DNA of 64,000 nt, taken from Candidatus Liptonbacteria bacterium. GTDB taxonomy: Bacteria > Patescibacteriota > Minisyncoccia > UBA6257 > 2-01-FULL-56-20. This document shows, one piece after another, positions 1 through 62,955 of the stretch. Made by a program: the position numbers and the translations under genes. A model generated the notes under the pieces. That model made no database searches. It saw nothing but the letters and a program-made list of their open reading frames with translations, and was not told the origin of the DNA. Where the stretch lies: NCBI GenBank assembly GCA_016182105.1, contig JACOXZ010000011.1, forward strand, positions 1,218 through 65,217, in the 5' to 3' direction. Positions within the stretch are counted from its first letter, which is position 1. Each line of letters starts with the position of its first letter.

Positions 1-538
1 GCCTGTCGTGCTCGTTTTCCGTGAGGAGTTTTTCTAGGTTGGGTGCTTCACGGAATGCACCCTGATAGGGATTGTTTCCGTGTTTGATGAGATTCACGAG
101 ATTCTTTGGCCGTGAGATATAGGTTAAGACAAGAGATGATGTGCCAGTCTTTGCTTCAAGGGAACCATAGTGAAAAAGTTTGCCTAAGGGGTTCGAGAAG
201 CTCGTAAATGTCGTGGAGTCGTCTATCCGCAGTGTTTTATCTTTCCGTCGGAAAACACCGCGCGTGTATGTAATCGAACCGGAATGGACGACGTAGTATT
301 CATAGTACCAAGAAAGAAACGCATATACGGTTACGGCAAATTGTGCGCCGGAGAGAAATAAAATTTTCGCTGCCTGGTAGGAAAGGAGGCTTGGAAAGGA
401 TAGCTGGACGTAGAGCTCGTATTTTACGTTGCCGAAGCTCACGGCAACAAGGTAGAGCAAGAACACCGCAACTTCAATAACCGCGAATTTCCATATAAGA
501 ACAATAGGGCTCCGCTTGATTATTGTCTCGTCGCTCAT
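1..538 (-). CDS. hypothetical membrane protein, 3'-truncated by the window edge (two N-terminal TM helices followed by a bacterial PH-like domain)
   Basis: Reverse-strand ATG at 536-538. Open frame with no stop reads MSDETIIKRSPIVLIWKFAVIEVAVFLLYLVAVSF... to position 1. It was not in the ORF track because it is truncated. Confidence 0.5.
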   Translation of the reverse strand, partial: MSDETIIKRSPIVLIWKFAVIEVAVFLLYLVAVSFGNVKYELYVQLSFPSLLSYQAAKILFLSGAQFAVTVYAFLSWYYEYYVVHSGSITYTRGVFRRKDKTLRIDDSTTFTSFSNPLGKLFHYGSLEAKTGTSSLVLTYISRPKNLVNLIKHGNNPYQGAFREAPNLEKLLTENEHDR

Positions 539-786
539 GGTGTGAGGTATTCTTACTCCGCGCACCTTGAGCGTAACACCGGATTTGGCCGCGTCAAACC
601 CCGTCACCTTAAAACATAAATCTTCTTCCTCAAAAATATGATTTGCGAATGAATAACATTTTCTTGAGAAAGACGGCTGGCGCTCACATCTTTCTAAGGT
701 GCGGGGTCAACGCGTCCCAGTCATCCTAGATACCTACTTACCGATAGGTATGTTGCGTTGACTAATGCTGCCGGGCTTGGTATCCT

Positions 787-1083
787 TCACTTTCGTTTCG
801 GACTACCTTTTCGACCAGACAGAAAATCCTTCTCTAAAGCTACGGCAACTAACCGTTTATATGCAAATGCCTTACCAGAACCTGACTTAAGATATCGCTC
901 GAAGTCGCGTGCCTCTTTCTCCGTGGTAAATGCACTATACCAAATTAATTTCCAGGGCAGATGAGGTTTTGTGGATGGCACACTGCCCTCGCTGTGAAGC
1001 TTGAATCTAGCCCGAAGATCATTAGTGGATCCGAAATAAAATATGTGCGACTTCGAGCTGAGCAAAATGTATGTATAGTGCAT
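787..1083 (-). CDS. GIY-YIG nuclease superfamily small protein (UPF0213-like)
   Basis: 98 aa. N-terminal YTYILLS..IFYFGSTNDLRARFKLH matches the GIY-YIG motif. Confidence 0.7.
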   Translation of the reverse strand: MHYTYILLSSKSHIFYFGSTNDLRARFKLHSEGSVPSTKPHLPWKLIWYSAFTTEKEARDFERYLKSGSGKAFAYKRLVAVALEKDFLSGRKGSPKRK

Positions 1084-1112
1084 GCTATTCCGTAGCTTTA
1101 GCGAAGGATAGC

Positions 1113-1181
1113 TGCCGGGCTTGGATTCGAACCAAGGTGACGTGATTCAGAGTCACGTATCCTACCACTAGATGACCCGGC
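1113..1181 (-). tRNA. tRNA-Gln (anticodon CUG)
   Basis: Reverse complement folds as GCCGGGT acceptor, 3-bp D stem ATC/GAT, anticodon stem CGTGA/TCACG with loop CUCUGAA, and T arm CTTGG-TTCGAAT-CCAAG. CCA is not encoded. Confidence 0.65.
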
Positions 1182-1215
1182 AAAGTCTTAGCGGTTCTTA
1201 TGTTATAATAATTCC

Positions 1216-2466
1216 ATGGCGGAAATCAAATTGCCTGATACGAAAGCGCTCAAAGTGACGATTGAAAAACAGCTCGTAAAATCCATTGATGAGGTCTCGA
1301 TCGTGGACTTGATCGACCTCTTTGTTTCTTATGCCTACGCGAGCAGGGCCTCGGACATCCATATTGAGCCAACAGCTGACACCGTGAGGGTCCGTTTCCG
1401 GATAGACGGCATTCTTCACGATATTTTCGATAAAATCGGCGTAACTAAAAGCCTCCATAACGAACTTATCAGCCGCATCAAGGTACTCTCTGGCTTACGG
1501 ACCGACGAGCACTTTTTGCCCCAGGACGGCCGCTTCAAGGCCAAGACTGATCACGTGGGCAATATTGACGTCCGGGTCTCGATTATGCCCACCCACTACG
1601 GAGAGAACGCGGTTATGCGGATCTTAGCCGAGACCCAAACTTTTGAGATTATAGACCTTGGTTTCTCGAAGCCTGACCTTGAGCGGGTGAGGCGGGCTAT
1701 TGAAAAGCCCTACGGCATGATCTTGGCCAATGGTCCCACAGGATCAGGCAAGACCACCACGCTTTACACGATCTTAAAGAAACTCAATAAACCAGAAGTC
1801 TCGATGATTACGATTGAAGACCCGGTGGAGTATTCGCTTGAAGGTACGACCCAAATTCAGGTCGACCCCAAAGCCGGCCTAAACTTTGCAAACGGTCTCC
1901 GCTCGATTCTGCGTCAGGACCCGAATGTCATCATGGTCGGCGAGATCCGCGACCAGGAGACAGCCGGGATTGCGGTCAATGCCGCCTTAACCGGTCACCT
2001 TCTTTTATCAACCCTTCACACCAACGATTCAGCCACTACTTTTCCGCGTTTGATTGACATGGGTGTGCCGCCGTTTCTTGTGGCTTCCACTTTGAACATT
2101 GCCATGGGCCAGCGCCTTGTTCGAAGGCTCTGCCCTGACTGCAAAAAAGAAAAAATTTTGAGCCCAGCGGAGGTTAAAAGTTTAAGCGAACTTGTTCCGG
2201 GAGTTGAATCTAAACCTAAGAAATATTACGCCGCCCAAGGCTGCAGCAAGTGCGGCCAGAGCGGCTACCAGGGTCGGATCGGCATCCGGGAGGTTTTGGA
2301 AGTGAATGATGAGATAAGAAAGCTCGTGATGAATCGAGCAAGCTCGCAGGAGATTAAACAAGCCTCGATAAAAAACGGCATGGTGACTATGGTCCAGGAC
2401 GGTTTAGAGAAGGCGATAAGCGGCATAACAAGCATTGAAGAGGTTCTCCGAACGGTTCGCGAGTAA
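1216..2466 (+). CDS. pilB: type IV pilus assembly / type II secretion ATPase (PilB/GspE family, short form)
   Basis: Walker A GPTGSGKTTT, Asp/His boxes and a C-terminal CxxC...CxxC zinc motif. 416 aa. Confidence 0.9.
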   Translation: MAEIKLPDTKALKVTIEKQLVKSIDEVSIVDLIDLFVSYAYASRASDIHIEPTADTVRVRFRIDGILHDIFDKIGVTKSLHNELISRIKVLSGLRTDEHFLPQDGRFKAKTDHVGNIDVRVSIMPTHYGENAVMRILAETQTFEIIDLGFSKPDLERVRRAIEKPYGMILANGPTGSGKTTTLYTILKKLNKPEVSMITIEDPVEYSLEGTTQIQVDPKAGLNFANGLRSILRQDPNVIMVGEIRDQETAGIAVNAALTGHLLLSTLHTNDSATTFPRLIDMGVPPFLVASTLNIAMGQRLVRRLCPDCKKEKILSPAEVKSLSELVPGVESKPKKYYAAQGCSKCGQSGYQGRIGIREVLEVNDEIRKLVMNRASSQEIKQASIKNGMVTMVQDGLEKAISGITSIEEVLRTVRE

Positions 2467-2478
2467 TTTAAACAAAGG

Positions 2479-3558
2479 ATGGTAGTCAAGCCCCACAAGT
2501 TTACCGAAGGAATTTTTGAGCACGTCGCAACTCAGGAGAAGATAAATTTCGCCCGCCACCTTTCTTTAACCATCAAGGCCGGTCTTCCACTTTTCGAGGG
2601 GCTCAAAATCATCAAAGGCCAGATCGTCTCCAAAACTTTAAAGAAAGTCATTGACGAGTTGATTGATGACGTGAATAAGGGCCAGTTTTTGTCGGACGCT
2701 CTTCAAAGACACCGGCATCTTTTCGGAGAATTTTTTATAAATATCATCAGAATAGGCGAGGCGAGCGGCACTTTGGCCTCGAATCTTCTCTATCTTGCAG
2801 AAGAGATGAAAAAGTCCAAGACTCTTCGAGGCAAAATCCGTTCGTCTATGATCTATCCCGTAATTATTCTTATTGCCACCCTCGCCATCACGTCACTTCT
2901 CATGTTTTTCGTCTTCCCCAAAATCCTTCCGGTTTTCGCAAGTTTGAATATCAAACTGCCGATCACGACCAGAATTATGATTGGCAGCGTGAATTTCCTT
3001 TTGGCAAACTGGCTAAAACTTGTTATTGGAATCGCAGTCGCGGTAATTGGCTTCCGGGCGCTTATCTTTCTTAATGGTTTTCGGTTTATTTTGCATAGGA
3101 TCGCGTTTTTTATACCTGTGCTCGCAAGACTGATCACTCACATTAATATGGCTAATTTCTCGAGGGTCACGGCCGTGCTCCTTAAAAGCGGCGTAAAGAT
3201 CGTGGAGGCAGTGACGATTACAAGCAAAACCTTCAATAACTTAGTCTATCGTCAGGAACTTTTGGCCGCGGCTGAAGAGATAAGGAAAGGCGGGCAACTA
3301 GGCGTCTATCTTTCAAAGAGAAAAAAATTTTTTCCGCCACTGCTCTCCGGTCTCATTACAATAGGGGAGAACACAGGCAATCTCGAAGATAATCTTTTTT
3401 ACCTTGCCGATTACTACGGCGAAGAAGTGGATGCTTCCCTCCGGAACCTCACGGCCTTGATCGAACCGCTTTTGCTTTTAGTTATGGGGCTTGTTGTCGG
3501 CTTCGTGGCGCTCTCGATTGTTACGCCGATCTACTCCATTACCCAAGGCATTAAATGA
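2479..3558 (+). CDS. pilC: type IV pilus inner-membrane platform protein PilC/GspF
   Basis: 359 aa polytopic protein with duplicated GspF-type domains. It directly follows pilB. Confidence 0.85.
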   Translation: MVVKPHKFTEGIFEHVATQEKINFARHLSLTIKAGLPLFEGLKIIKGQIVSKTLKKVIDELIDDVNKGQFLSDALQRHRHLFGEFFINIIRIGEASGTLASNLLYLAEEMKKSKTLRGKIRSSMIYPVIILIATLAITSLLMFFVFPKILPVFASLNIKLPITTRIMIGSVNFLLANWLKLVIGIAVAVIGFRALIFLNGFRFILHRIAFFIPVLARLITHINMANFSRVTAVLLKSGVKIVEAVTITSKTFNNLVYRQELLAAAEEIRKGGQLGVYLSKRKKFFPPLLSGLITIGENTGNLEDNLFYLADYYGEEVDASLRNLTALIEPLLLLVMGLVVGFVALSIVTPIYSITQGIK

Positions 3559-5315
3559 GGAACCGGCAGGGACTCACTTTTATTGATGTTGTTGTTTCGA
3601 TCGGCATCATTGGTATTCTCTTTGTCGGCATTTTTGCCACCTATTCCTCGATTTTGGACGTTATAAACAATTCCGAGAGACGAGGAGCGGCAGCCTCTAT
3701 CTTAAATAGGCAAATCGAGATTATCCGAAATCTGCCCTATAACCAGGTGGGCACAGTAGGCGGCGTGCCTTCCGGTATTATTCCTCAGGAACAGACTCTT
3801 CAGGCCTCGGGACTTACATTCGTCATAAAAACCACTGTTCGGAACATTGACGATCCATATGATGGCACCTTGGGCGGGAACCCCAATGACACAGCGCCGG
3901 CCGACTATAAGCTCGCGGAGCTCGAAGTCAGCTGCTCAAGCTGCGGGAGTTTCGTGCCATTGATTTTGACTACTACAGTCTCTCCTAAAAATTTGGAAGC
4001 CGCGAGCACGAACGGATCTATCTTCGTGAATGTCTTCGATGCGAGCGGAATCGGCATCTCGGGAGTCACGGTTCATGTGGTAAACGCAAGCATTACCCCG
4101 CCCCTAGACCTTTTTGACACGACAAACGCAAGCGGCGTTCTCCAACTTGTGGGCGTGTCAACAAGCACGCAGTCTTATCGGATTGACGTGAGTAAAACCG
4201 GCTATTCATCCGACAAAACCTACCAGCCGGGCGACCCCTCAAACCCTAATCCTCTGAAACCCCATGCGACGGTCGCGGCTCAAACAGTAACCCAAGTGAG
4301 TTTCGCGATTGACCGGGTGAGCACATTAAACGTTCGGACCTCGGACGTTGTCTGTTCGTCCGTCTCCGGACAAGATTTCACTCTTCAGGGGTCTAAACTT
4401 ATCGGTACTGGTCCGGATGTCTTGAAATTTTCGACGTCCTCGGCCACTGACGGGAGCGGCCTCAAGACTTTCAATAATCTTGAATGGGATACCTACAACA
4501 TCAGTCGTTCGGGAACGACTAATTACCTGGTCGGCACCATGCCTTTCTCTCCGTTAACCATAAACCCCAGTTCAACTCAAGATTTTCGATTTATTCTTGA
4601 GCCGTCTTCACCGGATGGGCTCCTTGTTATTGTTAAAGATTCGGGAAGCGGCGCAGTTATAAACGGCGCTTCAGTGAATCTCTCCAAGACGGGGTTCTCC
4701 CAGACTTTGATTACCGGACGCAATTTTTTGCGGCAAACCGATTGGTCGGCCGGTGAATATTCTAGTCAAGACGGCGGCATTGATGTTTCCTCGCCTGCCG
4801 GCACTTTAAAACTTCTTCTCTCGGCTTCGAGTACTTACAGCACCAGCACTGTGAGTTGGCTCACCTCGAATACTTTCAATGTCGGTTCTTCAACGGCCAC
4901 TTATTATACTTTAAGCTGGAGCCCGACCACCCAACCGCCCCAAACCGGCCCTGACAGCTTGAAATTCCAAATCGCTTCGAACAATGACAACGCCACTTGG
5001 AATTTTGTTGGCCCGGACGGCATGGCCGGGAGTTATTACACGACAAACGGCGCGGGCGTAGCCGGCCACAACAACCGTCGTTTTCTACGATATAAAGTAT
5101 TTATGAAAACGGATGACGAGAACTTTACGCCTTCACTCGATGATCTAAGCATTGAATTCAACTCCATCTGCGTGCCTGGCGGCCAGGTTCTTTTTAGCGG
5201 TCTTACCGCCGACGCTTATAGTATCACAGCCACGGCCGTTGGTTATTCTTTAGCATCAAGTTCTGTTTCGGTCGTAAATGGCTTCAATCAAACCGAGGTT
5301 TTAATGTCGCCTTAA
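3555..5315 (+). CDS. large prepilin-type N-terminal domain protein (pilus tip or minor pilin-like)
   Basis: N-terminus MRNRQGLTFIDVVVSIGIIGILFV is a class III signal (GLTFID plus hydrophobic helix). 586 aa, S/T-rich. Confidence 0.6.
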   Translation: MRNRQGLTFIDVVVSIGIIGILFVGIFATYSSILDVINNSERRGAAASILNRQIEIIRNLPYNQVGTVGGVPSGIIPQEQTLQASGLTFVIKTTVRNIDDPYDGTLGGNPNDTAPADYKLAELEVSCSSCGSFVPLILTTTVSPKNLEAASTNGSIFVNVFDASGIGISGVTVHVVNASITPPLDLFDTTNASGVLQLVGVSTSTQSYRIDVSKTGYSSDKTYQPGDPSNPNPLKPHATVAAQTVTQVSFAIDRVSTLNVRTSDVVCSSVSGQDFTLQGSKLIGTGPDVLKFSTSSATDGSGLKTFNNLEWDTYNISRSGTTNYLVGTMPFSPLTINPSSTQDFRFILEPSSPDGLLVIVKDSGSGAVINGASVNLSKTGFSQTLITGRNFLRQTDWSAGEYSSQDGGIDVSSPAGTLKLLLSASSTYSTSTVSWLTSNTFNVGSSTATYYTLSWSPTTQPPQTGPDSLKFQIASNNDNATWNFVGPDGMAGSYYTTNGAGVAGHNNRRFLRYKVFMKTDDENFTPSLDDLSIEFNSICVPGGQVLFSGLTADAYSITATAVGYSLASSSVSVVNGFNQTEVLMSP

Positions 5316-5924: not shown

Positions 5925-6025
5925 TCCCGTTAGAAGCCGCGATCGCGTTGCTAAAACTCCAAATATCTATCAATGTACAGTCATTACAATGAACTCGCCT
6001 AGATCGCGATCTGCTTCTAACGGGA
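5925..6025. repeat. family-1 miniature TIR element, copy E1 (about 101 bp; TIR tcccgttagaagccgcgatcgcg / cgcgatctgcttctaacggga)
   Basis: 22-nt terminal inverted repeats read directly. The internal sequence is homologous to E2, E3 and E4. The element ends at the ATG of the downstream gene. Confidence 0.8.
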
Positions 6026-9076: not shown

Positions 9077-9128
9077 TATAAGGAATTTATCCTTCCGTGG
9101 CCAGCGGCTATATCAAATTTTCGACCTA

Positions 9129-9158
9129 TTGACAAAATAGCTAGTTATAGTATATAAT
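9129..9158 (+). promoter_or_regulatory. sigma70-like promoter (TTGACA, 18-nt spacer, TATAAT) driving cassette A
   Basis: TTGACA at 9129-9134 and TATAAT at 9153-9158. Confidence 0.55.
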
Positions 9159-9317
9159 TAATCTGTTCTTTGATAATTCATATTCTAGTTTTTCAATCGC
9201 ATGAGGCGAGCGTTTAGCGAGTTAGATGAATAGCTCTTTAAGCACTCGCCTTATCACGAGGCGCGTCTCTCTCCGGAGGGAGTCCGGTAAGTTCACAACG
9301 AAAAGGAGAACGACGAT

Positions 9318-10191
9318 GACGACACAGTCGATCACGTCCGTCACAGACGGTCAGAAAAAGCAGTACCTGCGGTTCGTCGAGGACGCCGCCGACAAGGCGC
9401 TCGTGGAGGCCGTTCTCGACAAGGACGGTCTCCAGCGAGTCATCGAGAACGGGGACGACCTGCAGGCGGCCATCGTGGCCAAGCTCAAGGAGCTCTCGGT
9501 CACGAACGAGTACGCTGACGAGGAGGTCGGATCGAACTACGGTTACCTCTCGGGTTATAAGCCCAAGGGTATCGCCGAGCAGATCAAGACCCTCCGCAAG
9601 CTGTTCCCGTCGATCGGTACCGCTGACGAGCAGATCGCCAGCAAGCCGCTTCCCGCCAGTGCCGAGGGATGGTTCGCCATTCCGAGGTACGAGCTGGTCG
9701 CGGCGAGCTACAACGACGCGGTTCTCGCGGTGCTCGAGCTGACCAAGAAGGATCGCAATGGCAAGTTCTACAACTGGTGCGAGGGCCACCTCGGCCCGCA
9801 GTACCTGCACCAGACGGAGCGAGCCGTGCGTTCTCTGAAGAAGATCGGCGAAGAGCAGAAGGGTCACGACATCTTGGTCGTTGCGGCGCAGTTTGGTCTC
9901 CGTCACCGGGGCCGTTCCGTCCGTCGGGCTCGCTCCACTATGAACTCCTCGGAGTTCGGACTCGGCGCGTTCGCGGTCGGGGTCATACTGCTGACCCATC
10001 CCGAGCGTCTGAAGCACTACGATGACCTCTGGATCGACTGCGCAGGAGATGAGTACTCTCCTGACGCCGATGGCCGGTTCGACGAGGCCCCGCTCTTCGA
10101 CTTCGACGACGGCGAGGTGGAGTTCTTCACCCACTGGGTGGGCAATGCCCGCGAGTTCTATGGCTCTGCGTCGGGCTTTCTCCCGCAGTAG
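9318..10191 (+). CDS. GC-rich orphan acidic protein (291 aa), no recognisable family
   Basis: SD aaGGAGaacgacg precedes the ATG. Local GC is about 62% against about 46% in flanking sequence. A hairpin terminator follows. The antisense ORF 9238-10278 is judged to be a GC artefact. Confidence 0.55.
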
Positions 10192-10263
10192 TCGCTCCTC
10201 GAAACCTCGAACGCTTGGGTCTTTCGATCGTTTATCGCTTGATCCCTTGCGTTCGCTACAACT

Positions 10264-10312
10264 GGGGGTTATCCACACGGCACACGTGGATAACCCCTTT
10301 TTCTTTTTTTAA
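10264..10312 (+). terminator. rho-independent terminator
   Basis: Hairpin gggggttatccacacg-gcac-acgtggataacccc followed by a T-run. Confidence 0.75.
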
Positions 10313-10348
10313 TTTTTGATTTTAAGAATTTTCATATACAGCAAATAC

Positions 10349-10462
10349 AATTTCCGCGCGGCTATGAGTCCGAGCGGGCATGGTCTCCGACCGCGATCGG
10401 AGGAGCGCAGGACTCATCGCCAGCGAAGCCGCACGCTGGGCGGCTGAGCGGTAGCGGAAATT
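10349..10462. repeat. GC-rich long hairpin element, copy A (closing inverted repeat aatttccgc/gcggaaatt)
   Basis: Nested inverted repeats. Both ends are homologous to the element at 11882-12150. Confidence 0.6.
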
Positions 10463-10514
10463 ATATTTGCTATATTTAAGCAGATTTCGCATAATTTTAA
10501 ATATCTTTTATGAA

Positions 10515-10629
10515 TCCCGTTAGAAGCCGCGATCGCGTTGCAAATAAATTAAATATCAACCAAATGCGTAATCGTTACAATAAAATAAACCTGCAGACTT
10601 GCGCAAATCGCGATCTGCTTCTAACGGGA
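10515..10629. repeat. family-1 miniature TIR element, copy E2
   Basis: Same 22-nt TIRs as E1. The element ends at ATG 10629. Confidence 0.8.
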
Positions 10630-11870
10630 TGAAATTTCTTTTGATTTTAGGGTCGATTTTAGTGGCGGGCGCGGGCCTCTTTTTTATATTCGGAACTTCC
10701 AAAAATTTAATCATCGAACCCAAGGAAAATCCGCAAGGTGATCTTAACCTGACGCTTCTCCGTGTTCCGGAGCCGCCGCTTCCGACCTCAACCCCGCCTT
10801 CACCGCCCACGGCCGTCGATATCACAAACCAGCCGCCGCTTCAAGACCCGCCCCGGGTAGTCAAGGGAATATATGCAACGAGCTGGTCAGCTGGGTCAGA
10901 AAATAAAATTAAATATTTACTTGACCTTATAGATAAAACCGAACTTAACGCTATCGTCATTGATATAAAAGATTATTCCGGCTACGTGGCCTACAGAACC
11001 GGCATTCCCGAAGTTAGAGCCGCAGGCGCCGAAGACCAGATTCGCATCGCAAAACCAAACGCCCTGCTCAAACGTCTTCACGACAAAAATATCTATGTGA
11101 TCGGCAGGATCTCGGTTTTCCAGGACCCGATCTTAGCCAAAGCCCATCCCGAGTGGGCACTCGTTTCTTCAAGCACTGGCAAGCTCTGGGAAGATCGGAA
11201 AGGGCTCCTCTGGATGGATCCGGCCGCAGAACCAGTCTGGGATTATAATTTGAAGATTGCTAGAGACGCCTTGACGCGGGGTTTTGACGAGATTAACTTC
11301 GACTATATTCGTTTTGCTTCTGACGGCGACCTTAAAAATATTAAATATCCGGTTTGGGACGAGAAATCTTTAAAAAGCACAGTGATTAAGAACTTCTTTT
11401 CCTATTTGCGGAAAAATCTTCCCCAAGCCAAGATCTCCGCTGATCTTTTTGGTCTTGCGACCGTGAATCAAGAGGGCTTAGGCATCGGTCAGATTATAGA
11501 AGATGCTTACGAGTATTTTGATTATGTTTCGCCTATGGTTTATCCTTCACATTATGCTCCGGGATTCAATAACTACAAAAATCCCGCCGAGCACCCTTAT
11601 GAAGTGATTCGTTATTCACTTGATGAGGCTCTTAGACGTTTAGAAAACTATTCAAGCTCCACAAATCTTGAGGTTGGTTTAAAATCCAAACTGCGGCCGT
11701 GGCTCCAGGATTTTAACCTCGGCGCGACTTATGGCCCGGAAATGGTGAGGCGTGAGATTCAAGCCGTGGAAGATTCTTTGAATAGCGCCTCGAGTTCCAA
11801 CGCTTTCGCCGGCTGGCTTCTTTGGGATCCAGCGAATGTCTATACGGCAGCGGCCCTTCAAAACCAATGA
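10629..11870 (+). CDS. exported TIM-barrel glycoside-hydrolase-like protein (GHL/DUF4015-type)
   Basis: Signal/TM MKFLLILGSILVAGAGLFFIF, and a GHL-like core VKGIYATSW...NAIVIDIKD...WMDPA...FDEINFDYIRF. The ORF-track start at 10599 lies inside the repeat. Confidence 0.55.
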   Translation: MKFLLILGSILVAGAGLFFIFGTSKNLIIEPKENPQGDLNLTLLRVPEPPLPTSTPPSPPTAVDITNQPPLQDPPRVVKGIYATSWSAGSENKIKYLLDLIDKTELNAIVIDIKDYSGYVAYRTGIPEVRAAGAEDQIRIAKPNALLKRLHDKNIYVIGRISVFQDPILAKAHPEWALVSSSTGKLWEDRKGLLWMDPAAEPVWDYNLKIARDALTRGFDEINFDYIRFASDGDLKNIKYPVWDEKSLKSTVIKNFFSYLRKNLPQAKISADLFGLATVNQEGLGIGQIIEDAYEYFDYVSPMVYPSHYAPGFNNYKNPAEHPYEVIRYSLDEALRRLENYSSSTNLEVGLKSKLRPWLQDFNLGATYGPEMVRREIQAVEDSLNSASSSNAFAGWLLWDPANVYTAAALQNQ

Positions 11871-11881
11871 TAATGATAAAG

Positions 11882-12150
11882 AAAGCAAAGCAATTCTTTT
11901 TTTCCGCGGCTATTCGGCCGAAGCGGGCATGGCGCCCTGACTTTTGGCTTTCGGGAACCGGCGTCGCCTCTGCTCCAGCGGCAGAGTCGCGCCTGCATCT
12001 CGGCACTAAAATCCGCCTAAGGCGGAACCAAGCTTTTAGTGCCTCCGATAGCTTCCCGCAAACCAAAAGTCAGGGCGAGCGAGGCCGAATCGCCAACGAA
12101 AGTCCACGCTGGGGACTTGAGTGGTAGGAAAAAGGGAATTGCTTTGCTTT
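11882..12150. repeat. GC-rich long hairpin element, copy C (269 bp; perfect 15-bp terminal inverted repeats aaagcaaagcaattc / gaattgctttgcttt)
   Basis: Nested inverted repeats (ccctgacttttgg/ccaaaagtcaggg and ggcactaaaa/ttttagtgcc). The 5' and 3' ends align with copy A. Confidence 0.65.
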
Positions 12151-12876
12151 ATGACCTATGAATTGAGTTTAGAAAAATATAGGGGGCCGCTTGATAAACT
12201 CCTCGAGCTTATTGAGGAGAGAAAGCTTGAAATTACCGAGATCAGCCTAGCCGAGGTAACTCAAGATTTTTTGAAGTATTTGAAGACTTTGAAGAGAGTT
12301 GAGGCTGCAATTTTAGCTGAATTTATCGCTGTTGCGAGCCGCCTGATCCTTATTAAATCCAGAACCCTTCTTCCTAATCTGGTGTTGACAGAAGAAGAGG
12401 AAAACGAAATAAAGGATCTCGAGGCTCGGCTTAGAATTTATAAGGAGTTAAAGCCGGCCATGAAAATCCTTGTCTTGATTTGGCAGAAGAAGAACGTCGC
12501 CTTTGGGAGACCCTATTTTTTGAGCTTGGGAAGCGGGGGCCTGGGAGCTACGAGCGAGTTTTTTTATCCCGGCAAGGAATTAAATTTAGCCGCCCTTTCC
12601 GTGAGTCTCCAAAAGATCTTTGAGACCTTGAAGAACCTAGAGTTTGAGACAGAAACCATCAAAGAGAAAATCGTTTCTGTGGAGGAAAAGATTAAAGAGC
12701 TCATAAGCCGCCTAGTTCGCGAGGTGGAGATCAGTTTCAAAAATTTATCTTCTTCCAAATCAGCAAAGGAGATCATTGCCGTCTTCTTGGCCATTCTTCA
12801 TTTGGCCAACGAGCGGCTGATCTCATTGGAGCAAGAAACCCATTTTTCTGATATACTGATAAAAAAAATAGGATGA
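12151..12876 (+). CDS. scpA: segregation and condensation protein A
   Basis: MTYELSLEKYRGPLDKLLELIEERKLEITEISLAEVT matches the ScpA N-terminus. Confidence 0.75.
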   Translation: MTYELSLEKYRGPLDKLLELIEERKLEITEISLAEVTQDFLKYLKTLKRVEAAILAEFIAVASRLILIKSRTLLPNLVLTEEEENEIKDLEARLRIYKELKPAMKILVLIWQKKNVAFGRPYFLSLGSGGLGATSEFFYPGKELNLAALSVSLQKIFETLKNLEFETETIKEKIVSVEEKIKELISRLVREVEISFKNLSSSKSAKEIIAVFLAILHLANERLISLEQETHFSDILIKKIG

Positions 12877-19054: not shown

Positions 19055-20933
19055 AGCCAAAAATTTTACCGATTTCGAGGAGTCGTTAAATGGCGGCTCA
19101 CGCGAGGAAGTCATAGAGGTGCCCTTGAGCAGCCAGCCGCTTTTTTATACGGGCTTATTAATTTTTCTTTTTGCCGCGCTTGCCGTAGGCCGCGTTCTTT
19201 TCTTGGGTGTAGTCTCCGGCGAAATCTATAAAGCCAGGGCCGAGGCCAATTCTAGCGAGCTCGAGCGGCTTCAAGCGCCGAGGGGTCTCGTCTTCGCGAG
19301 AGGCGGAGAAGTTTTGGCAGAAAACCAGCCGGTTTTCCTGGCCGTCTTGAAGACCAGCGAATTTCTAAAAGACGAGTCTATCCAAGAAAAAACGCTTGCT
19401 TCAATCAAGGAGATTATGGGAATTGATAGAGAACTAGTCTGGAGTCTGATCAAAGAACGAGACCAAGAAAGAATAGGCGACCCAATTGTTCTTAGCGCCG
19501 ACCTAAGCCAAACTGAGCTAATTCAGCTTAAAAGCCTCAATTCCTTGTCCCTGGTCGTAGAGAGCGGTTTCAAGAGGAATTATCCGGACGGCCCAATTTT
19601 TTCTTCCATAATTGGCTATACCGGACTCCCTACCGCCCTAGATCTTAGAGAGAATGCCGAACTTACCGGCGTGGATTTTGTTGGCAAATCCGGCCTAGAG
19701 GCTTTTTACGATAAAGATCTCCGCGGAAAAAACGGATTTTTAGCGTATCTCCGCGATGCCAAAGGTGAAATCTTCGAAGAAAAAAAGGAGAGGCCAGTCG
19801 AGGCAGGAGCGGCTCTCAATTTAACAATTGACGCTGAATTTCAGCGCTATTTTTACCACAGGATGCAAGAGGGACTCACCTCATTAGGGAGAAACTCCGG
19901 CGTTGGTCTGGCGTTAAATCCGAGAAACGGCGAGGTTTTGGCCCTGATTAATTTACCGAGCTACGACCCCAATATTTTCTTGGCTCCAGAGAAAAACGAA
20001 GAGAGGTTGAAACTCTTGAATTCACCGGAGACGCCCCTGTTCAATCGGGCTATAAGCGGCACCTACAGCCCAGGTTCCACAATTAAGCCGCTCGTGGCTC
20101 TCGCGGCTTTGAGCGAAGGCGTGATCAACACCGAAAAACAAATTTATTCCCCAGGCTATCTTGAAATTCCGAATCCTTATGACCCCCAGAAACCCACTCT
20201 TTTCCTCGATTGGCGGCCCCAGGGCTGGGTGAATTTAGAGCGGGCCATTGCTCAGTCCTCGAACGTTTATTTCTACACTGTAGGCGGTGGCTTCGGCGAT
20301 ATTAAGGGGCTGGGGATCAAACGTTTAAACGACTGGTGGCAAAAATTTAATTTAGGAAAGCTCACTGGCATTGATTTACCTTGGGAGGCCAAGGGACTTT
20401 TGCCCACAGTCGAGGAAAAAGAAAAAAGAACCGGCACGCCCTGGCTTTTGGGCGATACTTATAACGTCTCAATTGGCCAGGGAGATCTCTTGCTTACTCC
20501 TCTTCAGATTTTAAACTACGTTGCCGCAATTGGAAACGGCGGGAAAATCTACCGGCCGTTTCTTGTCTCGAATTTCAAACACTCCGAAGTTGCTAGCGAC
20601 CTTTCTAATCTTCAAACTCAAATTTCTGAAGTGGAGAAAGGCATGAAGGCCGCAGTGAATTTTCCCTTAGGCACCGCCTACCTCCTTCACGATCTTCAGG
20701 TCTCGGTCGCTGCAAAAACCGGAACAGCCCAGATTTTGTCGAACACCCAGGCCAACGCCTTCTTTGTCGGTTTTATGCCGGCCGAGGATCCTGAAATTGT
20801 TATCCTGATTTTAGTTGAACGTTCGCGCGAAGGCAGTTTAAACACCGTGCCTATCGCTAAAGACGTGCTTAACTGGTACTACTTAAACCGGATCCCTCAC
20901 CCTTCAGAGATTTTATCTACGTCATCAAAATGA
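19002..20933 (+). CDS. mrdA: penicillin-binding protein 2 (transpeptidase)
   Basis: STIKP (SxxK), SSN and KTGTA motifs. The last 11 codons and the stop codon lie inside family-2 repeat F2-1. Confidence 0.8.
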   Translation: MLSQLFLSLKPSMPRKYKAKNFTDFEESLNGGSREEVIEVPLSSQPLFYTGLLIFLFAALAVGRVLFLGVVSGEIYKARAEANSSELERLQAPRGLVFARGGEVLAENQPVFLAVLKTSEFLKDESIQEKTLASIKEIMGIDRELVWSLIKERDQERIGDPIVLSADLSQTELIQLKSLNSLSLVVESGFKRNYPDGPIFSSIIGYTGLPTALDLRENAELTGVDFVGKSGLEAFYDKDLRGKNGFLAYLRDAKGEIFEEKKERPVEAGAALNLTIDAEFQRYFYHRMQEGLTSLGRNSGVGLALNPRNGEVLALINLPSYDPNIFLAPEKNEERLKLLNSPETPLFNRAISGTYSPGSTIKPLVALAALSEGVINTEKQIYSPGYLEIPNPYDPQKPTLFLDWRPQGWVNLERAIAQSSNVYFYTVGGGFGDIKGLGIKRLNDWWQKFNLGKLTGIDLPWEAKGLLPTVEEKEKRTGTPWLLGDTYNVSIGQGDLLLTPLQILNYVAAIGNGGKIYRPFLVSNFKHSEVASDLSNLQTQISEVEKGMKAAVNFPLGTAYLLHDLQVSVAAKTGTAQILSNTQANAFFVGFMPAEDPEIVILILVERSREGSLNTVPIAKDVLNWYYLNRIPHPSEILSTSSK

Positions 20934-21023
20934 GTACTACAGACAAGACGTTTCCTTTCAAAGTCGCTCGGCAAAAGAGATCACACCATGAAAAATCGTG
21001 CATGATCTCTGAATGGTGAGGGA
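20893..21023. repeat. family-2 miniature TIR element, copy F2-1 (about 131 bp; TIR ccctcacccttcagagat / atctctgaa.ggtgaggg)
   Basis: Homologous to the copies at 34724 and 62973. It ends at an ATG. Confidence 0.8.
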
Positions 21024-21364
21024 TGATTCAAAAATTTATTCGATTTAAAATCACAAGCGCTGCTTTCTTCGCGAGTTTGACACTGGTTTTAAGTGGATGG
21101 CTTTGGGCCTATTTTTCGTTAAGAAATCTCCCGCCACCCTATATTCTTAGGTTTGTGAGCAATCTTGGTGTGACCCAATTAGGCGATCTTCAAGACATTG
21201 CCGCCGCCGGAGCCGTGGCCATGATAAGCGTGCTTTTGAATTTTATACTGGCTTTTGAGCTTGAGACCAAAGCAAAGTTTTTAGCGAAACTCCTGACTTT
21301 TTCAACCCTGACTTTTGCCGCCTTGATTTTCATCGGCTTCGCCGCTATTATTAGCGTCAACTAG
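21023..21364 (+). CDS. hypothetical small membrane protein
   Basis: 113 aa with three hydrophobic segments. The start is supplied by the end of F2-1. Confidence 0.35.
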   Translation: MIQKFIRFKITSAAFFASLTLVLSGWLWAYFSLRNLPPPYILRFVSNLGVTQLGDLQDIAAAGAVAMISVLLNFILAFELETKAKFLAKLLTFSTLTFAALIFIGFAAIISVN

Positions 21365-32982: not shown

Positions 32983-33573
32983 ATGGCCCATCCAAAGGAG
33001 GAAAAAACGGTAATTATCGTAAAGCCCGACGGCGTGAAACGCGGGTTAATCGGCGAGATTATGAAGCGAGTTGAGCAGCGCGGGTTAAAGATTATTGCAG
33101 TAAAGATGATTCAGGCTGACAAGCCTCTGATTGACAAGCACCTGCCCAAGAGCAGGCAGTGGATTATTGATGTCGGAAACAAAAGTTTGGAGGACTATAA
33201 AAAATATAAACTTGACCCTCGAAAGCATATCGGGACCGCTGATCCGTTCAAGATTGGAATGTTGGTGCGAAAGTGGCTTTTTGATTATTGGACGTCAGGT
33301 CCTGTGGTAGCGTTCGCGGTTCAGGGAGTGCACGCGATTGACATGGTGAGGAAGATTGTCGGGAATACCTTGCCGGCCAAGGCCGAGATGGGAACGATTA
33401 GAGGGGACTATTCGGTTGATTCGGCGATTTTAGGAAATTTAGGGAAACGGGCGGTGCACAACATCGTCCACGCCTCGGGGAGTCCGGAAGAAGCAAGGAA
33501 TGAGTTCAAGAAGTGGTTTAAACCAAATGAGCTTCATTCTTACGATCGCGCCGATGACGATATTATGTTCTAG
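32983..33573 (+). CDS. ndk: nucleoside diphosphate kinase (with an internal insertion)
   Basis: IIKPDGVKRGLIGEI, and a GTIRGDY....N..HAS segment that matches Ndk GTIRGDF...N..HGSD. Confidence 0.7.
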   Translation: MAHPKEEKTVIIVKPDGVKRGLIGEIMKRVEQRGLKIIAVKMIQADKPLIDKHLPKSRQWIIDVGNKSLEDYKKYKLDPRKHIGTADPFKIGMLVRKWLFDYWTSGPVVAFAVQGVHAIDMVRKIVGNTLPAKAEMGTIRGDYSVDSAILGNLGKRAVHNIVHASGSPEEARNEFKKWFKPNELHSYDRADDDIMF

Positions 33574-34723: not shown

Positions 34724-34855
34724 CCCCCCCACTCTTCAGAGATTTTCTCTACGTCATCAAAATGAGTACTATAGACAAAATGTTTCATTTCAAGGCCGTT
34801 CGGCAGATGAGATTATGCTACGAAAAATCGTGCATGATCTCTGAAGAGTGAGGGA
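34724..34855. repeat. family-2 miniature TIR element, copy F2-2
   Basis: It begins immediately after the TGA of the upstream response regulator and ends at the ATG of the next one. Confidence 0.8.
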
Positions 34856-35262
34856 TGAGGCCGAAACCTTTAATTTTATTAGTTGACGATGAGGCTGATT
34901 TTCGAGAGATTATCAGCGCGAAGCTCACCGCAGCGGGTTTTGACGTTGCTCTAGCTAAAAATCAGTCCGAAGCCGTCGCTAAAGCCGAGCAACTCTTGCC
35001 TGACCTGATTTTAATGGATATCTATTTGCCGCCCGGGCCAACCGGGACTGATACGGCCTTGAACATCAGGCAAAATCCCAAAACCAAAGATTTAAAAATC
35101 GCATTCCTCACCAATCTTAAAGAACCCTGGCCTGCAATCGGCGGGGATAGAGAAAAAGTTACCCAAGAGCTTGGCATGGAAGGGTTTATAGAAAAGACAG
35201 AAGATTTGAATATGCTCGTCAAAAAAATCCAGGAAATTTTAGAGAAGGCTCCCTCGTCTTGA
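34855..35262 (+). CDS. single-domain response regulator (paralogue of 34331-34723)
   Basis: MRPKPLILLVDDEADF receiver domain. Confidence 0.7.
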   Translation: MRPKPLILLVDDEADFREIISAKLTAAGFDVALAKNQSEAVAKAEQLLPDLILMDIYLPPGPTGTDTALNIRQNPKTKDLKIAFLTNLKEPWPAIGGDREKVTQELGMEGFIEKTEDLNMLVKKIQEILEKAPSS

Positions 35263-38568: not shown

Positions 38569-39744
38569 ATGAATGGCGTAAAGGCTAAAAAAGTGGTTTT
38601 CGTGGGACTAAGCGGAGGGGTGGATAGCTCGGTCGCAGCCCTGATTTTATCTGGCTACGCCAGATCTCGCGAAGCGAGAAAAGAAAAAGGATACGAAGTA
38701 ATCGGGGTTTTTATGCGCTGTTTCAATTTAGACGGGTGTGCCGAGCGAGATGCCGAGGACGCCAGACGGGTGGCTGGTCACCTTGGGATTCCTTTTTACG
38801 TCTGGGATTTTGAGGAGGAGTATAAGCAACGGGTGGTGGACTACATGGTTCAGGGATACGCCCAAGGGATTACCCCGAATCCGGACGTGATGTGCAATAA
38901 GGAAATCAAGTTTGGGCTCTTTTTAGAGAAGGCGCTTAAGATGGGAGGGACTCACGTGGCCACGGGGCACTATGTTCGGCTGACTGTTTCTCGGGACCGG
39001 CTGTTGACTCGCTCCAGCGGCGAGTCCCAGCCTGCGAGAGCTCCTTCGAAGCAATCAGCCTCACCAGTTTATTCGCTTTCTGTTGCTAAAGATAAAAATA
39101 AGGACCAGTCCTATTTCCTTTGGACTTTGACCCAAAAACAGTTGAAGCATTGCCTTTTTCCGATAGGAAGTTATTTAAAGTCCGAGGTGCGTGAAATTGC
39201 ACGTAAGGCCGGGCTCCCGACGGCTGATAAAAAAGATTCGCAGGGGATTTGTTTTTTAGGGAAAGTGACGCTCGGGGATTTTCTGCGAGAGTATATTCCC
39301 GAGGAGAGGGGGCCGGTTTTAAGCGTGACTGGCGAGCGGCTCGGCGAGCACCAGGGCTCTCATTTTTATACGATCGGCCAGCGCCGCGGGATTGGGATTG
39401 GCGGCGGCACGCCCTACTACGTGGCGGAAAAGGATGTGGCGACAAATACGCTCGTTGTTGCCCCGAGTGAAACTCACGAGTCGCTCTATCGAAAGGAAAT
39501 CGAGCTTACTGATGTAAATTTCATCCGGTCGGATTTACCATCTCTAATTCGCGCGAATAAGGGAATTGAGGTTTTAGCTAGAGTTCGCTACCGCCAGCCG
39601 CTTGCTCTCGCGAAACTCTATAACCTATCACCTAACACCTATCACCTCGAATTTGGCCGGCCTGTCAAATTCGTCACCCCCGGCCAGTCAGCCGTGTTCT
39701 ATCTAAAGGACGGTGAGATGTTTGGCGGGGGGATAATCACATGA
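38569..39744 (+). CDS. mnmA: tRNA 2-thiouridine(34) synthase MnmA (with a GC-rich in-frame insertion)
   Basis: PP-loop SGGVDSS and the KDQSYFL motif. Confidence 0.8.
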   Translation: MNGVKAKKVVFVGLSGGVDSSVAALILSGYARSREARKEKGYEVIGVFMRCFNLDGCAERDAEDARRVAGHLGIPFYVWDFEEEYKQRVVDYMVQGYAQGITPNPDVMCNKEIKFGLFLEKALKMGGTHVATGHYVRLTVSRDRLLTRSSGESQPARAPSKQSASPVYSLSVAKDKNKDQSYFLWTLTQKQLKHCLFPIGSYLKSEVREIARKAGLPTADKKDSQGICFLGKVTLGDFLREYIPEERGPVLSVTGERLGEHQGSHFYTIGQRRGIGIGGGTPYYVAEKDVATNTLVVAPSETHESLYRKEIELTDVNFIRSDLPSLIRANKGIEVLARVRYRQPLALAKLYNLSPNTYHLEFGRPVKFVTPGQSAVFYLKDGEMFGGGIIT

Positions 39745-40328: not shown

Positions 40329-40370
40329 AACCAACCCTGCCGCCAAAAACTGAGCAAAATTTCTACTATG

Positions 40371-40403
40371 ATTATACCGCAATTGCGGTATAATCGTAGT
40401 AAG
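40371..40403. promoter_or_regulatory. perfect 24-bp palindrome ATTATACCGCAATTGCGGTATAAT plus CGTAGTAAG (copy 1, upstream of rpsB)
   Basis: Read directly. A near-identical copy is at 62923-62955. Confidence 0.5.
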
Positions 40404-62907: not shown

Positions 62908-62922
62908 AAAGAGTTACTATTA

Positions 62923-62955
62923 TTATACCACAATTGCGGTATAATCGTAGTAAGG
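62923..62955. promoter_or_regulatory. palindromic motif copy 2 (attataccAcaattgcggtataatcgtagtaag)
   Basis: 32 of 33 positions match 40371-40403. Confidence 0.5.

Follow-up and report, generated by a model that had tools for sequence, protein, structure and literature searches.

ERIC/IRU sequences are imperfect palindromes in which internal extra sequence gives rise to size variants, and they are transcribed within mRNAs. Orphan RNAs and ribozymes, such as raiA, ROOL, twister and hatchet, combine conserved junction and loop nucleotides with covarying stems, optional stem insertions and scattered genomic contexts. ERIC copies are occasionally intragenic (PMC10969869), and REPs carry a conserved GTAG tag beside a hairpin (PMC3733652). 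The bcr1 repeat of the Bacillus cereus group, about 155 bp long, is interspersed and transcribed, its distribution varies between close strains, and its RNA has a cruciform-like two-hairpin structure which is kept by compensatory base changes (PMC3184786). Rickettsia palindromic elements (RPEs) are palindromic repeats of about 100-150 bp, found in a reduced genome both between genes and in frame in housekeeping open reading frames (ORFs); they form several families, and the enzyme that mobilises them is unknown (PMC10969869, PMC3184786).

Here we describe an element located directly in front of scpA in a genome of Candidatus Liptonbacteria. The window that we analysed is a stretch of 64 kb, and the element, called here copy C, occupies its positions 11882-12150 on the + strand. 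It is a non-coding composite, in which a module of one family, L, is nested inside an element of another, S; neither family is represented in Rfam 15 or in the literature searched. S is a non-coding structured family with a three-way junction, ~110-130 nt in length, and L is a 145-nt three-way-junction module, which in copy C takes the place of the tip of the long S arm.

The copies of L residing in the mnmA gene behave like in-frame RPEs, by analogy rather than as members of the RPE families. However, S and L occur in the CPR phylum and presumably have no sequence relationship to RPEs; they form three-way junctions in which the loops are invariant and the closing stems vary, their copy number is apparently low, and copies are common to classes as distant as Saccharibacteria and Parcubacteria. 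RPE-1 to RPE-10 encode a conserved peptide, whereas L is read in varied frames and orientations with no conserved peptide, and in-frame insertion holds for L only, S never being seen in an ORF. With bcr1 the two families share compensatory changes that keep the fold and a strain-variable distribution, a likeness suggesting that they may work like bcr1 rather than belong to it; bcr1 has 5-bp direct repeats and many copies per genome; in S and L direct repeats of this kind were absent, the copies are apparently few and the spread is described as cross-phylum. Copy C resembles ERIC/IRU in being an imperfect palindrome whose size variant is due to internal extra sequence, but ERIC inserts are family-internal, the insert of copy C is an independent structured module, and there is no sequence similarity. 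As in REP/BIME sequences, a folded single strand rather than a terminal repeat would be recognised, and S has an invariant GGUAG at its junction. REPs, however, are extragenic, high-copy simple hairpins of 20-40 bp with a terminal GTAG or CGTC tag and a RAYT gene nearby, whereas S and L are low-copy three-way junctions of 110-150 nt (110-270 nt with composites) and the GTAG of S is internal; no RAYT or HUH transposase was found in the 64-kb window. Finally, S and L have the conserved junction and loop nucleotides, covarying stems, large stem insertion and scattered contexts of orphan RNAs, but they match no Rfam model, the data imply no cleavage site or ligand, and the presence of L inside ORFs in both orientations is atypical for such classes.

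The composite element in front of scpA

The sequence-only reading described this locus as a GC-rich nested hairpin with perfect 15-bp terminal inverted repeats, ending exactly at the scpA start codon, and all these features were borne out. aaagcaaagcaattc (11882-11896) and gaattgctttgcttt (12136-12150) are exactly reverse-complementary, the core is rich in GC, and copy C stops one base before the ATG at 12151-12153; the ScpA protein corresponds to P0001 of the source genome (241 aa, 100% identical). The pairing extends to a 24-bp closing stem, P1, formed in the minimum-energy fold by the AU-rich 5' arm (11882-11905) and the 3' arm (12127-12150); it contains 2 mismatches, its outer 15 nt being perfectly paired. 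Folding of the + strand yielded -144 kcal/mol, as compared to -95.8 +/- 5.0 for 200 dinucleotide shuffles (z = -9.7), and for the - strand z = -7.8 was obtained.

Inside P1, on the same strand, the 5' half of S (11906-11932) aligns to positions 10358-10383 of copy A, the other S element of the window. Its parts are the junction GC, the 5' strand of P2, GGCUAUUCGGCC (11908-11919), and one strand of the internal loop, GAAGCGGGCAUGG (11920-11932), which is conserved. At the tip of the long arm lies L (11933-12077; model R2, 151 bits, E = 6e-39). It is built from an outer stem, a GGAA/UUCC stem and two hairpins, of which one bears the invariant loop UCCAGCG (11974-11980) and the other, a long one, the bulge ACCAAGC on its 3' side (12027-12033). 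The 3' half of S follows (12078-12126), fitting both the pattern CGAA..CACGCTGGG..TGAGYGGTAG and model R1. It contains the loop strand AGCGA, then the 3' strand of P2, GGCCGAAUCGCC (12083-12094), the P4 hairpin (12101-12117), which has the loop ACGCUGG (12106-12112) and is flanked by tandem G.A pairs, and the junction GGUA.

Both ends of the element had been proposed to be homologous to a hairpin further upstream. That hairpin, copy A, exists as the short, canonical form of S on the + strand (model R1, 130.7 bits, and fold), and its extent, previously given as 10349-10462, was corrected to 10340-10471 once the closing stem is included. In copy A, P1 is formed by 10340-10357 with 10454-10471 and P2 by 10360-10371 with 10410-10421, the apical hairpin lies at 10385-10404 and the P4 loop at 10433-10439; folding gave z = -5.3 for the + strand and -7.0 for the - strand. 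The proposed homology withstood comparison with shuffled controls: local alignment to copy A scored 35 for the 5' end of copy C (shuffles 14.7 +/- 2.4) and 37 for the 3' end (shuffles 13.9 +/- 2.2), and none of 1000 shuffles reached either score. Compensatory substitutions between the copies were found as well, P2 showing three compensatory pair changes. It had been left undecided whether copy A is a deletion derivative or copy C bears an insertion. We reject the former possibility and accept the latter, because the apical hairpin of copy A, CUCCGAC...GUCGGAG, is the canonical one, present also in the S copies L006, L008 and L013 in spite of their distance from copy A, and because the extra 145 nt of copy C, namely L, constitute a self-contained module found alone elsewhere. 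Full covariance-model scans without filters revealed no further S copy in the 64-kb window.

The S and L families

The S pattern search returned 4 genome loci and 10 metagenome loci, which represent 13 distinct S copies. Groundwater at Hainich (H41/H43) and Rifle was the source of the loci L002, L010 and L006. The S copies are closed by P1, a long stem rich in AU, and further comprise the long arm P2, the hairpin P3 and the short hairpin P4. In the long arm P2 and P3 are separated by the asymmetric loop GAGC-GGGCAKGGU / GAGCGA, and the P4 loop, CACGCUGGG, is followed by the invariant GGUAG; GCGGGCAKGG and GAGCGA are kept among the copies, neither of them being forced by the search pattern. When 10 short copies were compared, 82% of cells were paired, versus 33-47% with the partners slid, and double changes occurred at 32 of the 45 pairs, a value as high as this appearing in 0 of 500 shuffles. 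P1 covaries (double changes at 12 of 17 pairs), as does P4. The closing-stem sequences vary among copies and are common only to close sub-lineages (L008/L016 and L014/L017); since these related copies share the stem in different contexts, the stem travels with the element.

The non-canonical pairs of S are strand-asymmetric (G.A/A.G 46 versus C.U/U.C 4; G.U 20 versus A.C 13), and S is co-oriented with both neighbours in all four tandem-gene contexts. The asymmetry and the co-orientation both indicate a role at the RNA level, which is counted against mobility, as is the finding that none of the S copies lies inside an ORF. The neighbours of S are unrelated (MurE, GT2 glycosyltransferase, deaminase, MurG/holB, rplJ, 5S rRNA, SIMPL), and S is also located between convergent genes.

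For the L family, 12 copies were found, in which 93.7% of cells are paired, double changes are present at 39 of the 43 pairs, and the UCCAGCG loop and the ACCAAGC bulge are conserved. L is devoid of strand asymmetry (G.U 10, with one invariant pair excluded, versus A.C 14). At locus L001 it occurs alone, on the opposite strand, between dnaX and DUF4015; a possible CCTCAATTT direct repeat was noticed around this copy. Thus placed directly upstream of dnaX, and in L014 of a holB/dnaX-like gene, L occupies the classical position of ffs, the gene for SRP RNA. Identity with SRP RNA was nevertheless rejected, as helix-8 motifs and an Rfam match are missing, L follows a pilin gene in L020, in a position and orientation other than in L001, and L is also found inside mnmA.

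In the window a truncated L without the long hairpin (38973-39066, + strand; R2 45.8 bits, E = 3.5e-10) lies in frame in the mnmA ORF 38569-39744, and comparison with solved MnmA structures revealed ~22-28 extra amino acids exactly at this site. Full L copies were detected in the mnmA ORFs of L026 (+), L027 (+) and L028 (-). None of the four ORFs is interrupted, the insertion being in frame. A conserved L peptide is ruled out: some MnmA proteins have RSSGE at the L hairpin and others LAPAAS, which means two frames or more, and in one case the hairpin is read antisense.

S and L are linked and co-oriented at 4 independent loci, nested in copy C/L003 and in L011, and in tandem in L014 and L017. 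The S loop CGCUGGG is complementary to the L loop UCCAGCG over 6-7 bp; the duplex of both loops with their closing pairs has an energy of -14.6 kcal/mol, and the chance of such complementarity for two random 7-nt loops is ~9e-4. The idea that S is an inverted homologue of L was abandoned: the topology is shared and the models cross-match at 22-33 bits, but homology is not supported, and a search of L with the S profile (nhmmer, both strands) gave no match.

Comparisons with known RNAs and sites were negative. Neither the window nor 18 loci matched Rfam 15 at gathering score, a collection whose models cover riboswitches, ribozymes, SRP, 6S, RNase P, tmRNA, omega, HEARO and retron RNAs, and the element alone, at E <= 10, gave only chance matches (Listeria rli56, 19.6 bits; MIR4239, 14.8 bits); three tRNAs predicted by ARAGORN all lie elsewhere. 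Retron msr/msd, IS110 bridge RNA and TnpB/IscB omega RNA were rejected, no reverse transcriptase, recombinase or nuclease gene being located nearby, and so was integron attC, as S and L have no R''/R' cores. The GC-rich ORF 9226-10191 beside copy A has no Pfam, PHROG or PADLOC match and bears no relation to the ORF adjoining the L006 copy. Promoter and terminator scans returned counts equal to the chance expectation, with no terminator or anti-terminator.

Mobility and the competing explanations

The explanation that we favour, though with as much reservation as confidence, is that S and L are non-autonomous, structure-selected mobile elements comparable to RPEs or bcr1. Only L003, an 86% strain, shares the copy C element before scpA among the relatives examined. 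In L001 and L005 (82-85% ScpA identity) a YkuD-peptidase gene lies between DUF4015 and scpA, with a gap of ~3 nt before the latter, and at the DUF4015-scpA junction of L020-L025 (52-61% ScpA identity; gaps 0-48 nt) no R1 or R2 match was found. The site is therefore polymorphic, being filled in the window and L003 and without the element in L001, L005 and L020-L025; no element precedes scpA in syntenic Liptonbacteria. S and L are hosted by Liptonbacteria, Paceibacterota, Saccharibacteria and metagenomes, in unrelated gene neighbourhoods with neither position nor neighbours conserved. Termination of three contigs within an element was also counted for mobility.

Other observations speak against it. 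Between the strains the element is 94.4% identical, as compared to 88.7% and 81.9% for the flanking genes, and the changes keep the structure; conservation exceeding that of the flanks indicates purifying selection or very recent transfer. Copies A and C are so diverged that blastn gives 11-nt seeds only, which excludes a recent burst. The copy number of both families looks low: of 185,579 species representatives only 4 were matched by the strict S pattern, each of them once, and the 64 kb of this genome contain two copies each of S and L, which have all diverged strongly. No candidate mobilising enzyme for S and L was found, and transposase, integrase and reverse transcriptase genes are absent from the 64-kb window. 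Carriage by phages was considered and rejected, as in IMG/VR the S pattern had 0 matches and the L pattern 68, approximately the chance level and with 0 confirmed by R2, and blastn against 50,697 phage genomes was without a match. A further insertion in the window, that in NDK (32983-33573), is not palindromic.

If S and L are mobile, or were formerly so, an enzyme provided in trans would copy them into new DNA sites. It would recognise a folded single strand, with its junction and invariant loops, and not a terminal sequence, which might explain why the stems covary and yet the termini differ between lineages. The long closing stem would allow the GC-rich core to fold independently, and thanks to this self-folding an insertion may be tolerated in the space that separates the stop codon of one gene from the start codon of the following one, or where the protein has a permissive loop. 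Co-transcription with host genes would then produce a very stable structure, and P1, a double-stranded RNA of 15-35 bp, is plausible as an RNase III site or as a stabiliser of mRNA ends.

The most serious alternative, although in our opinion an unlikely one, is that S and L are domains of a functional two-domain RNA of ~270 nt, with the S loop kissing the L loop. Such an RNA could be encoded with one domain nested in the other or with both side by side, or S might stand on its own and act on L located elsewhere (e.g. in mnmA mRNA); gene loss and horizontal transfer, instead of transposition, would then have scattered it. The linkage and co-orientation of S and L, in nested as well as tandem connectivity, together with the strength of the loop complementarity, fit this possibility as well as they fit nesting. 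It is also favoured by the conserved loops and bulges of S (GCGGGCAKGG, GAGCGA) and L (UCCAGCG, ACCAAGC), unforced by the pattern, by strand-specific tandem G.A pairs in S, by conservation above the flanking genes with wobble-compatible changes, and by the apparently low copy number. On the other hand, the kiss gains no support from covariation because both loops are invariant, and an internal CCAGCG of S competes for the S loop. A functional RNA is also difficult to reconcile with L lying within coding sequence in both orientations and different reading frames, with the same site being empty in close relatives, with the lack of a conserved position or neighbour for S or L, and with the missing strand asymmetry of L.

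We are somewhat more doubtful about a broader proposal, that S and L are two halves of a new CPR-wide class of structured RNAs or the RNA part of a protein-less mobile element. As members of such a class, the loops CACGCUGGG and UCCAGCG would kiss intramolecularly when nested or adjacent and intermolecularly otherwise, and S might act in trans on L-tagged transcripts such as mnmA; alternatively, the S-L pair might be a ribozyme or a guide of an RNA-based mobile element.

The indifference of L to orientation raises the question of a site acting at the DNA level, that is a cruciform or folded strand to which a recombinase or a factor for replication or segregation would bind, or else a signal of the Chi or uptake type. 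L retains its structure in either orientation and within genes, it bears no RNA-strand signal, and the invariant loops contain GCTGG and AGCGG motifs. Quasi-palindrome template switching is an established mutational mechanism, and it could yield paired changes without selection on RNA. We consider this explanation improbable in view of the strong G.A strand asymmetry of S and its co-orientation with genes; moreover, no associated DNA-binding or recombinase gene was found, and the elements are too rare and irregular for a genome-wide signal.

A slightly poorer prospect still is a classical MITE, whose terminal inverted repeats would be recognised by the transposase of a related IS, with target-site duplications (TSDs) and many near-identical copies. 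The sequence-only reading had hesitated between a structured non-coding family and a MITE-like repeat. The first part stands, in view of the covarying stems in S and L. The second stands only with respect to presence/absence polymorphism, nesting and insertion in ORFs, to which the perfect terminal repeats of copy C may be added, while conserved termini and a consistent TSD are missing and the copy number looks low in the 64 kb. Termini that vary while internal loops are conserved are the reverse of a MITE. No consistent TSD or target motif was present at the borders of the 12 L copies and the S copies, no parent insertion sequence was found, the two copies in 64 kb are highly diverged, and the window is without transposase. 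The unrelated 'B' hairpins of the same window are a genuine MITE family, three of the four copies being flanked by TSDs of 3-5 bp (TGA, TGAA, CGTTG), and hence the genome does host MITE-type elements; identity of the B hairpins with integron attC was rejected, by eye only, as the motif order is inverted.

The position of copy C, which ends at the start codon with the 3' arm of P1 forming the 24 nt upstream of the ATG, might suggest a leader that regulates scpA in cis (a riboswitch, thermometer or attenuator, for example). This is very improbable: the seven other scpA loci examined (Liptonbacteria/Parcubacteria; among L001, L005 and L020-L025) have no element there, S adjoins unrelated genes and occurs also between convergent ones, and no terminator or anti-terminator was detected. 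A conserved cis-regulatory function for scpA is refuted, and copy C is not its dedicated regulator; a lineage-specific side effect of copy C on scpA translation is possible.

The ORFs called across 11882-12150 had been suspected to be artefacts, and this was confirmed, as they have no Pfam match and no real protein homologue. A composite six-frame peptide query against 5.8 billion proteins gave no match, though this artificial query missed even the L003 ORF. When the natural ORF was run against 1.84 billion representatives in a full HMMER scan, three small ORFs (86, 95 and 162 aa) came up, in our reading ORF calls on further L copies. The other matches were to giant proteins and weak, their scores adding up over repeats; P0242, the one examined, shared 33% identity across repeated domains. 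Nothing homologous at the protein level extends over the element. Despite the open frames of 101 and 117 aa (11822-12127, + strand; 11713-12066, - strand) and an 86-aa ORF annotated by a gene caller on the L003 copy, a protein-coding gene can be dismissed almost entirely, since database matches are confined to what we take for ORFs over L copies and to spurious repeat-summed hits, and the substitutions between strains track base pairing, not codon position.

Significance for CPR genomes

To our knowledge, almost no non-coding RNAs or repeat families have been described in CPR bacteria, whose genomes are tiny. Two element families are defined here, each with a testable consensus structure and a working covariance model. 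They span CPR classes and nest in each other, and L is inserted in frame in a conserved tRNA-modification gene in several lineages. Whether mobile or functional, the element before scpA should be annotated neither as a gene nor as a regulator of scpA. If S and L are functional RNAs, they would constitute a new class with a predicted, directly testable loop-loop interaction. If they are mobile, the CPR would have its own equivalent of the 'selfish DNA in protein-coding genes' of Rickettsia, and some odd insertions and spurious short ORFs annotated in CPR genomes would be explained.

Structure and coding status of the composite

The stretch at 11882-12150 (copy C), flanked by a DUF4015 glycosyl-hydrolase-like gene (10632-11870) on one side and by scpA (ATG at 12151, followed by scpB and a D-Ala-D-Ala carboxypeptidase gene) on the other, is real and non-coding and combines two structured element families, one nested in the other. 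Its inverted repeats are perfect over the outer 15 nt of each side, as the sequence-only reading had stated, and pairing continues to 24 bp. The + strand folds stably, reaching -144 kcal/mol versus -95.8 +/- 5.0 in dinucleotide shuffles (z = -9.7). The proposed homology of both ends with the element at 10349-10462 also withstood a shuffle control: local alignment scores were 35 (5' end) and 37 (3' end) against about 14-15 +/- 2.3, and 0 of 1000 controls reached the observed values.

Both ends of copy C and the related copy A (10340-10471) have a common architecture, a three-way-junction element denoted S. P1, its closing stem, is long and AU-rich. P2 (GGCUAU-N6 / N6-AUCGCC), a helix of 12 bp, has a conserved U.C mismatch and differs between the two copies by three compensatory pair changes of the kind that the earlier reading had proposed to look for. 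The internal loop, GA(A)GCGGGCAUGG / GAGCG(C)A, is asymmetric, and P3 is the hairpin at the apex. On the 3' side stands the hairpin P4, with loop CACGCUGGG and tandem G.A pairs on its flanks, followed by GGUAG. In copy C, 145 nt (11933-12077) stand in place of the tip of the long arm. Whether copy A was a deletion derivative or copy C carried an insertion had been left undecided; because the P3 hairpin of copy A (CUCCGAC...GUCGGAG) recurs in distant S copies, copy A is canonical and copy C bears an insertion. The insert is an independent module, denoted L.

No real gene with homologues was found across the stretch, and the open reading frames called there are artefactual, as had been supposed. 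Pfam gave no match on them, and a six-frame peptide query against 5.8 billion proteins found nothing. HMMER, run in full against 1.84 billion representatives with the 101-aa ORF as query, recovered nothing but an 86-aa ORF called on L003, a related strain, two small ORFs of 95 and 162 aa, read as called over further L copies because their sequences match the translated L region, and weak matches to giant proteins. Each of these giants matched over 3-7 stretches; in the one inspected (P0242), the matches have 33% identity to a tandemly repeated domain and are inflated because repeats were summed. Rfam 15 yielded no match at gathering score for the window and 18 related loci, and chance matches only at E <= 10 for the elements alone; both families are absent from Rfam 15 and from the literature searched.

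Occurrence and covariation of S and L

The same composite occupies the same site in L003 (86% ScpA identity). When public collections were searched with the 3' motif CGAA-N-CACGCTGGG-N-TGAGYGGTAG, S was found at four loci, one per genome, in 185,579 species-representative genomes (Liptonbacteria, Paceibacterota, Saccharibacteria and an unclassified MAG) and at ten in metagenomes, with no match among viral contigs; removal of duplicates left 13 distinct copies. The hand-derived structure of 10 short copies places 82% of cells in standard pairs versus 33-47% with slid 3' partners, and 32 of 45 pairs show double-sided changes; none of 500 column shuffles reached any of five measures. The family of structured non-coding elements, one of the options offered earlier, is thereby upheld. 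Conservation extends to GCGGGCAKGG and to the loop strand GAGCGA, neither of which the search motif demanded. Since non-canonical cells are strand-asymmetric (G.A/A.G 46 vs C.U/U.C 4; G.U 20 vs A.C 13), the constraint acts on the strand co-directional with scpA. The closing stem is part of the element, because related copies in differing contexts have common stem sequences (L008/L016, L014/L017). In L007 (4560-4680) the 5' arm of this stem (tttaagcgaggaaRcctttattctcc) is duplicated ~75 nt upstream of the element, perhaps left over from a second copy or from the insertion event.

The module L also occurs apart from copy C. In L011, a diverged homologue forms the apex of another S copy, just as in copy C. 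L014 and L017 have L immediately upstream of S; in L007 the two are 2.4 kb apart, and the Liptonbacteria locus L020 has L after a pilin gene. In L001, an 85% relative, L stands alone on the other strand between dnaX and DUF4015. This solitary L is flanked by CCTCAATTT (3960-3985 and 4140-4165, ~20 nt before and 6 nt after); no other S or L border showed a candidate direct repeat. All copies fold alike: besides an outer stem and a GGAA/UUCC stem, they form one hairpin whose loop, UCCAGCG, is invariant and a second, long hairpin bearing ACCAAGC as a 3' bulge. Twelve copies aligned to R2, the covariance model of L, have 93.7% of cells paired versus 42-53% when slid, with double changes in 39 of 43 pairs.

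A truncated L lies within the mnmA ORF of the window (38973-39066; R2 45.8 bits, E = 3.5e-10), exactly where its product has ~22-28 aa extra relative to solved MnmA structures, between GHYVRL and KDKNKDQSYFL; the peptides RSSGE and LAPAAS are two-frame readings of the L hairpin cgCUCCAGCGgcgag. Insertions at this site vary among CPR MnmA homologues. In all three further mnmA genes examined the ORF is open and holds a full L with its ACCAAGC bulge (L027, + strand, 81 bits; L026, +, 53 bits; L028, the opposite orientation, -, 46.6 bits). CPR MnmA proteins vary in length between 344 and 574 aa and have several sites of variable insertion; in the window, codons 28-37 (38650-38680) hold a second small in-frame insertion, SGYARSREAR, with a mini-hairpin tctcGCGAAGCgaga, and the homologue P0165 carries a longer one, SGSARSREARKRAGLPAGR, at the same site.

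Neighbouring genes and other repeats

Gene order in Liptonbacteria and relatives is dnaX(-) / DUF4015 / scpA / scpB / peptidase S11 / GT4. In L020-L025, DUF4015 and scpA are separated by a gap of 0-48 nt; L001 and L005 have a YkuD-peptidase gene that abuts scpA. Neither R2 nor R1, the covariance model of S, matched at this junction in any of these loci, and elsewhere S has unrelated neighbours (MurE, GT2 glycosyltransferases, deaminase, MurG/holB, rplJ, SIMPL), often lying between convergent genes; a role of copy C as an scpA regulator was therefore rejected. A YkuD-peptidase S11 fusion gene stands between DUF4015 and scpA in L001 (5465-6796), L005 (1219-2583) and L023 (8585-9952); the lineage of the window and L003 is devoid of it, and the composite sits there (window 11871-12150). 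One S copy directly follows a 5S rRNA gene (L012 3173-3300, - strand; 22 nt downstream of 5S at 3034-3151, +), and the adjoining 23S rRNA of that locus (1-3300) is interrupted, with a LAGLIDADG endonuclease ORF inside (2108-2587).

The B hairpins, TCCCGTTAGAAGC...GCTTCTAACGGGA (~100-117 bp; 5925-6025, 10515-10629, 53226-53341 and 60564-60680), form a separate family, ~70-97% identical to one another, which is a bona fide MITE. Three of the four copies have border direct repeats (TGA, TGAA or CGTTG). Comparison with L001 shows that the copy at 10515 entered DUF4015 two bases into its start; in three copies ATGAA is restored by the final A of the element together with the duplicated TGA(A), including at the starts of DUF4015 (10629) and of a called ORF (60680). 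The dnaX-DUF4015 spacer (9077-10631) is an insertion hot spot: at 1.55 kb here it exceeds the 260 nt of L001 and the ~60 nt of L020 and L023, and it contains an orphan ORF (9226-10191; 321 aa, 62% GC; no match in Pfam, PHROG or PADLOC), a terminator hairpin (10264-10298), copy A and a B hairpin, while L024 has NYN and T5orf172 genes at this position. The window also holds a 133-nt repeat family (20894-21026, 34726-34858 and 62974-63106; 86% and 62% identity), a 39-nt palindromic motif TACTATGATTATACCGCAATTGCGGTATAATCGTAGTAA at 40364-40402 and 62914-62952, and a 300-nt duplication (57402-57701 with 58125-58424) within a gene for an fn3-domain protein.

Mobility versus a cellular function

With moderate confidence, we read copy C as a non-autonomous mobile element whose fold is under selection. 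The presence/absence pattern and the nesting point to mobility, and the mnmA insertions, the variability of MnmA insertions and the travelling closing stems add to this case, as do three metagenome contigs that break inside an S or L element (L002 and L004 at position 1, L010 at its end), as could be expected if repeats or strong hairpins disrupt assembly. The MITE-like option of the sequence-only reading survives only loosely; the defining tests of a classical MITE failed, and that identity is very unlikely. The window contains housekeeping genes only, with no transposase, integrase or reverse transcriptase gene.

A functional two-domain S-L RNA is a possible, though doubtful, alternative, which several observations keep alive. 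Filter-free scans detected only two S and two L in 64 kb, and the blastn comparison suggested earlier gave, within the window, only 11-nt seeds common to copies A and C. Loops are conserved while termini vary, and no consistent target duplication was seen at S and L borders, unlike at B hairpins. The element of the window shares 94.4% identity with that of L003, whereas flanking DUF4015 and scpA sequence shares 88.7% and 81.9%. Among the 15 differences in the element are two complete compensatory pairs, ~six G.U/Watson-Crick switches and two changes that create A.C. However, template switching rather than selection can also yield paired changes in palindromes. In 4 of 4 tandem-gene contexts S is co-oriented with both neighbours, and four independent loci, representing two connectivities, have S and L linked in the same orientation; against this, L has no strand asymmetry and is found within ORFs in both orientations. 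The invariant loops of S and L are complementary over 6-7 bp (-14.6 kcal/mol for the duplex with closing pairs; chance for random 7-nt loops ~9e-4), but the pairing is without covariation support because both loops are invariant, and CCAGCG inside S competes for the S loop. That the stretch is instead a site acting at the DNA level seems to us improbable.

The mobile element that we favour would work like two known kinds of repeats, though it belongs to neither family. Rickettsia palindromic elements (RPE) insert in frame into unrelated genes (PMC10969869), as L lies in frame within mnmA ORFs; bcr1 of the Bacillus cereus group varies in distribution between strains and keeps its RNA fold by compensatory changes (PMC3184786), a behaviour that S and L parallel. 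Spread might then depend on a trans-acting enzyme that recognises the folded single strand, the closing stem would insulate the element from its surroundings, and its transcript may be processed by RNase III.
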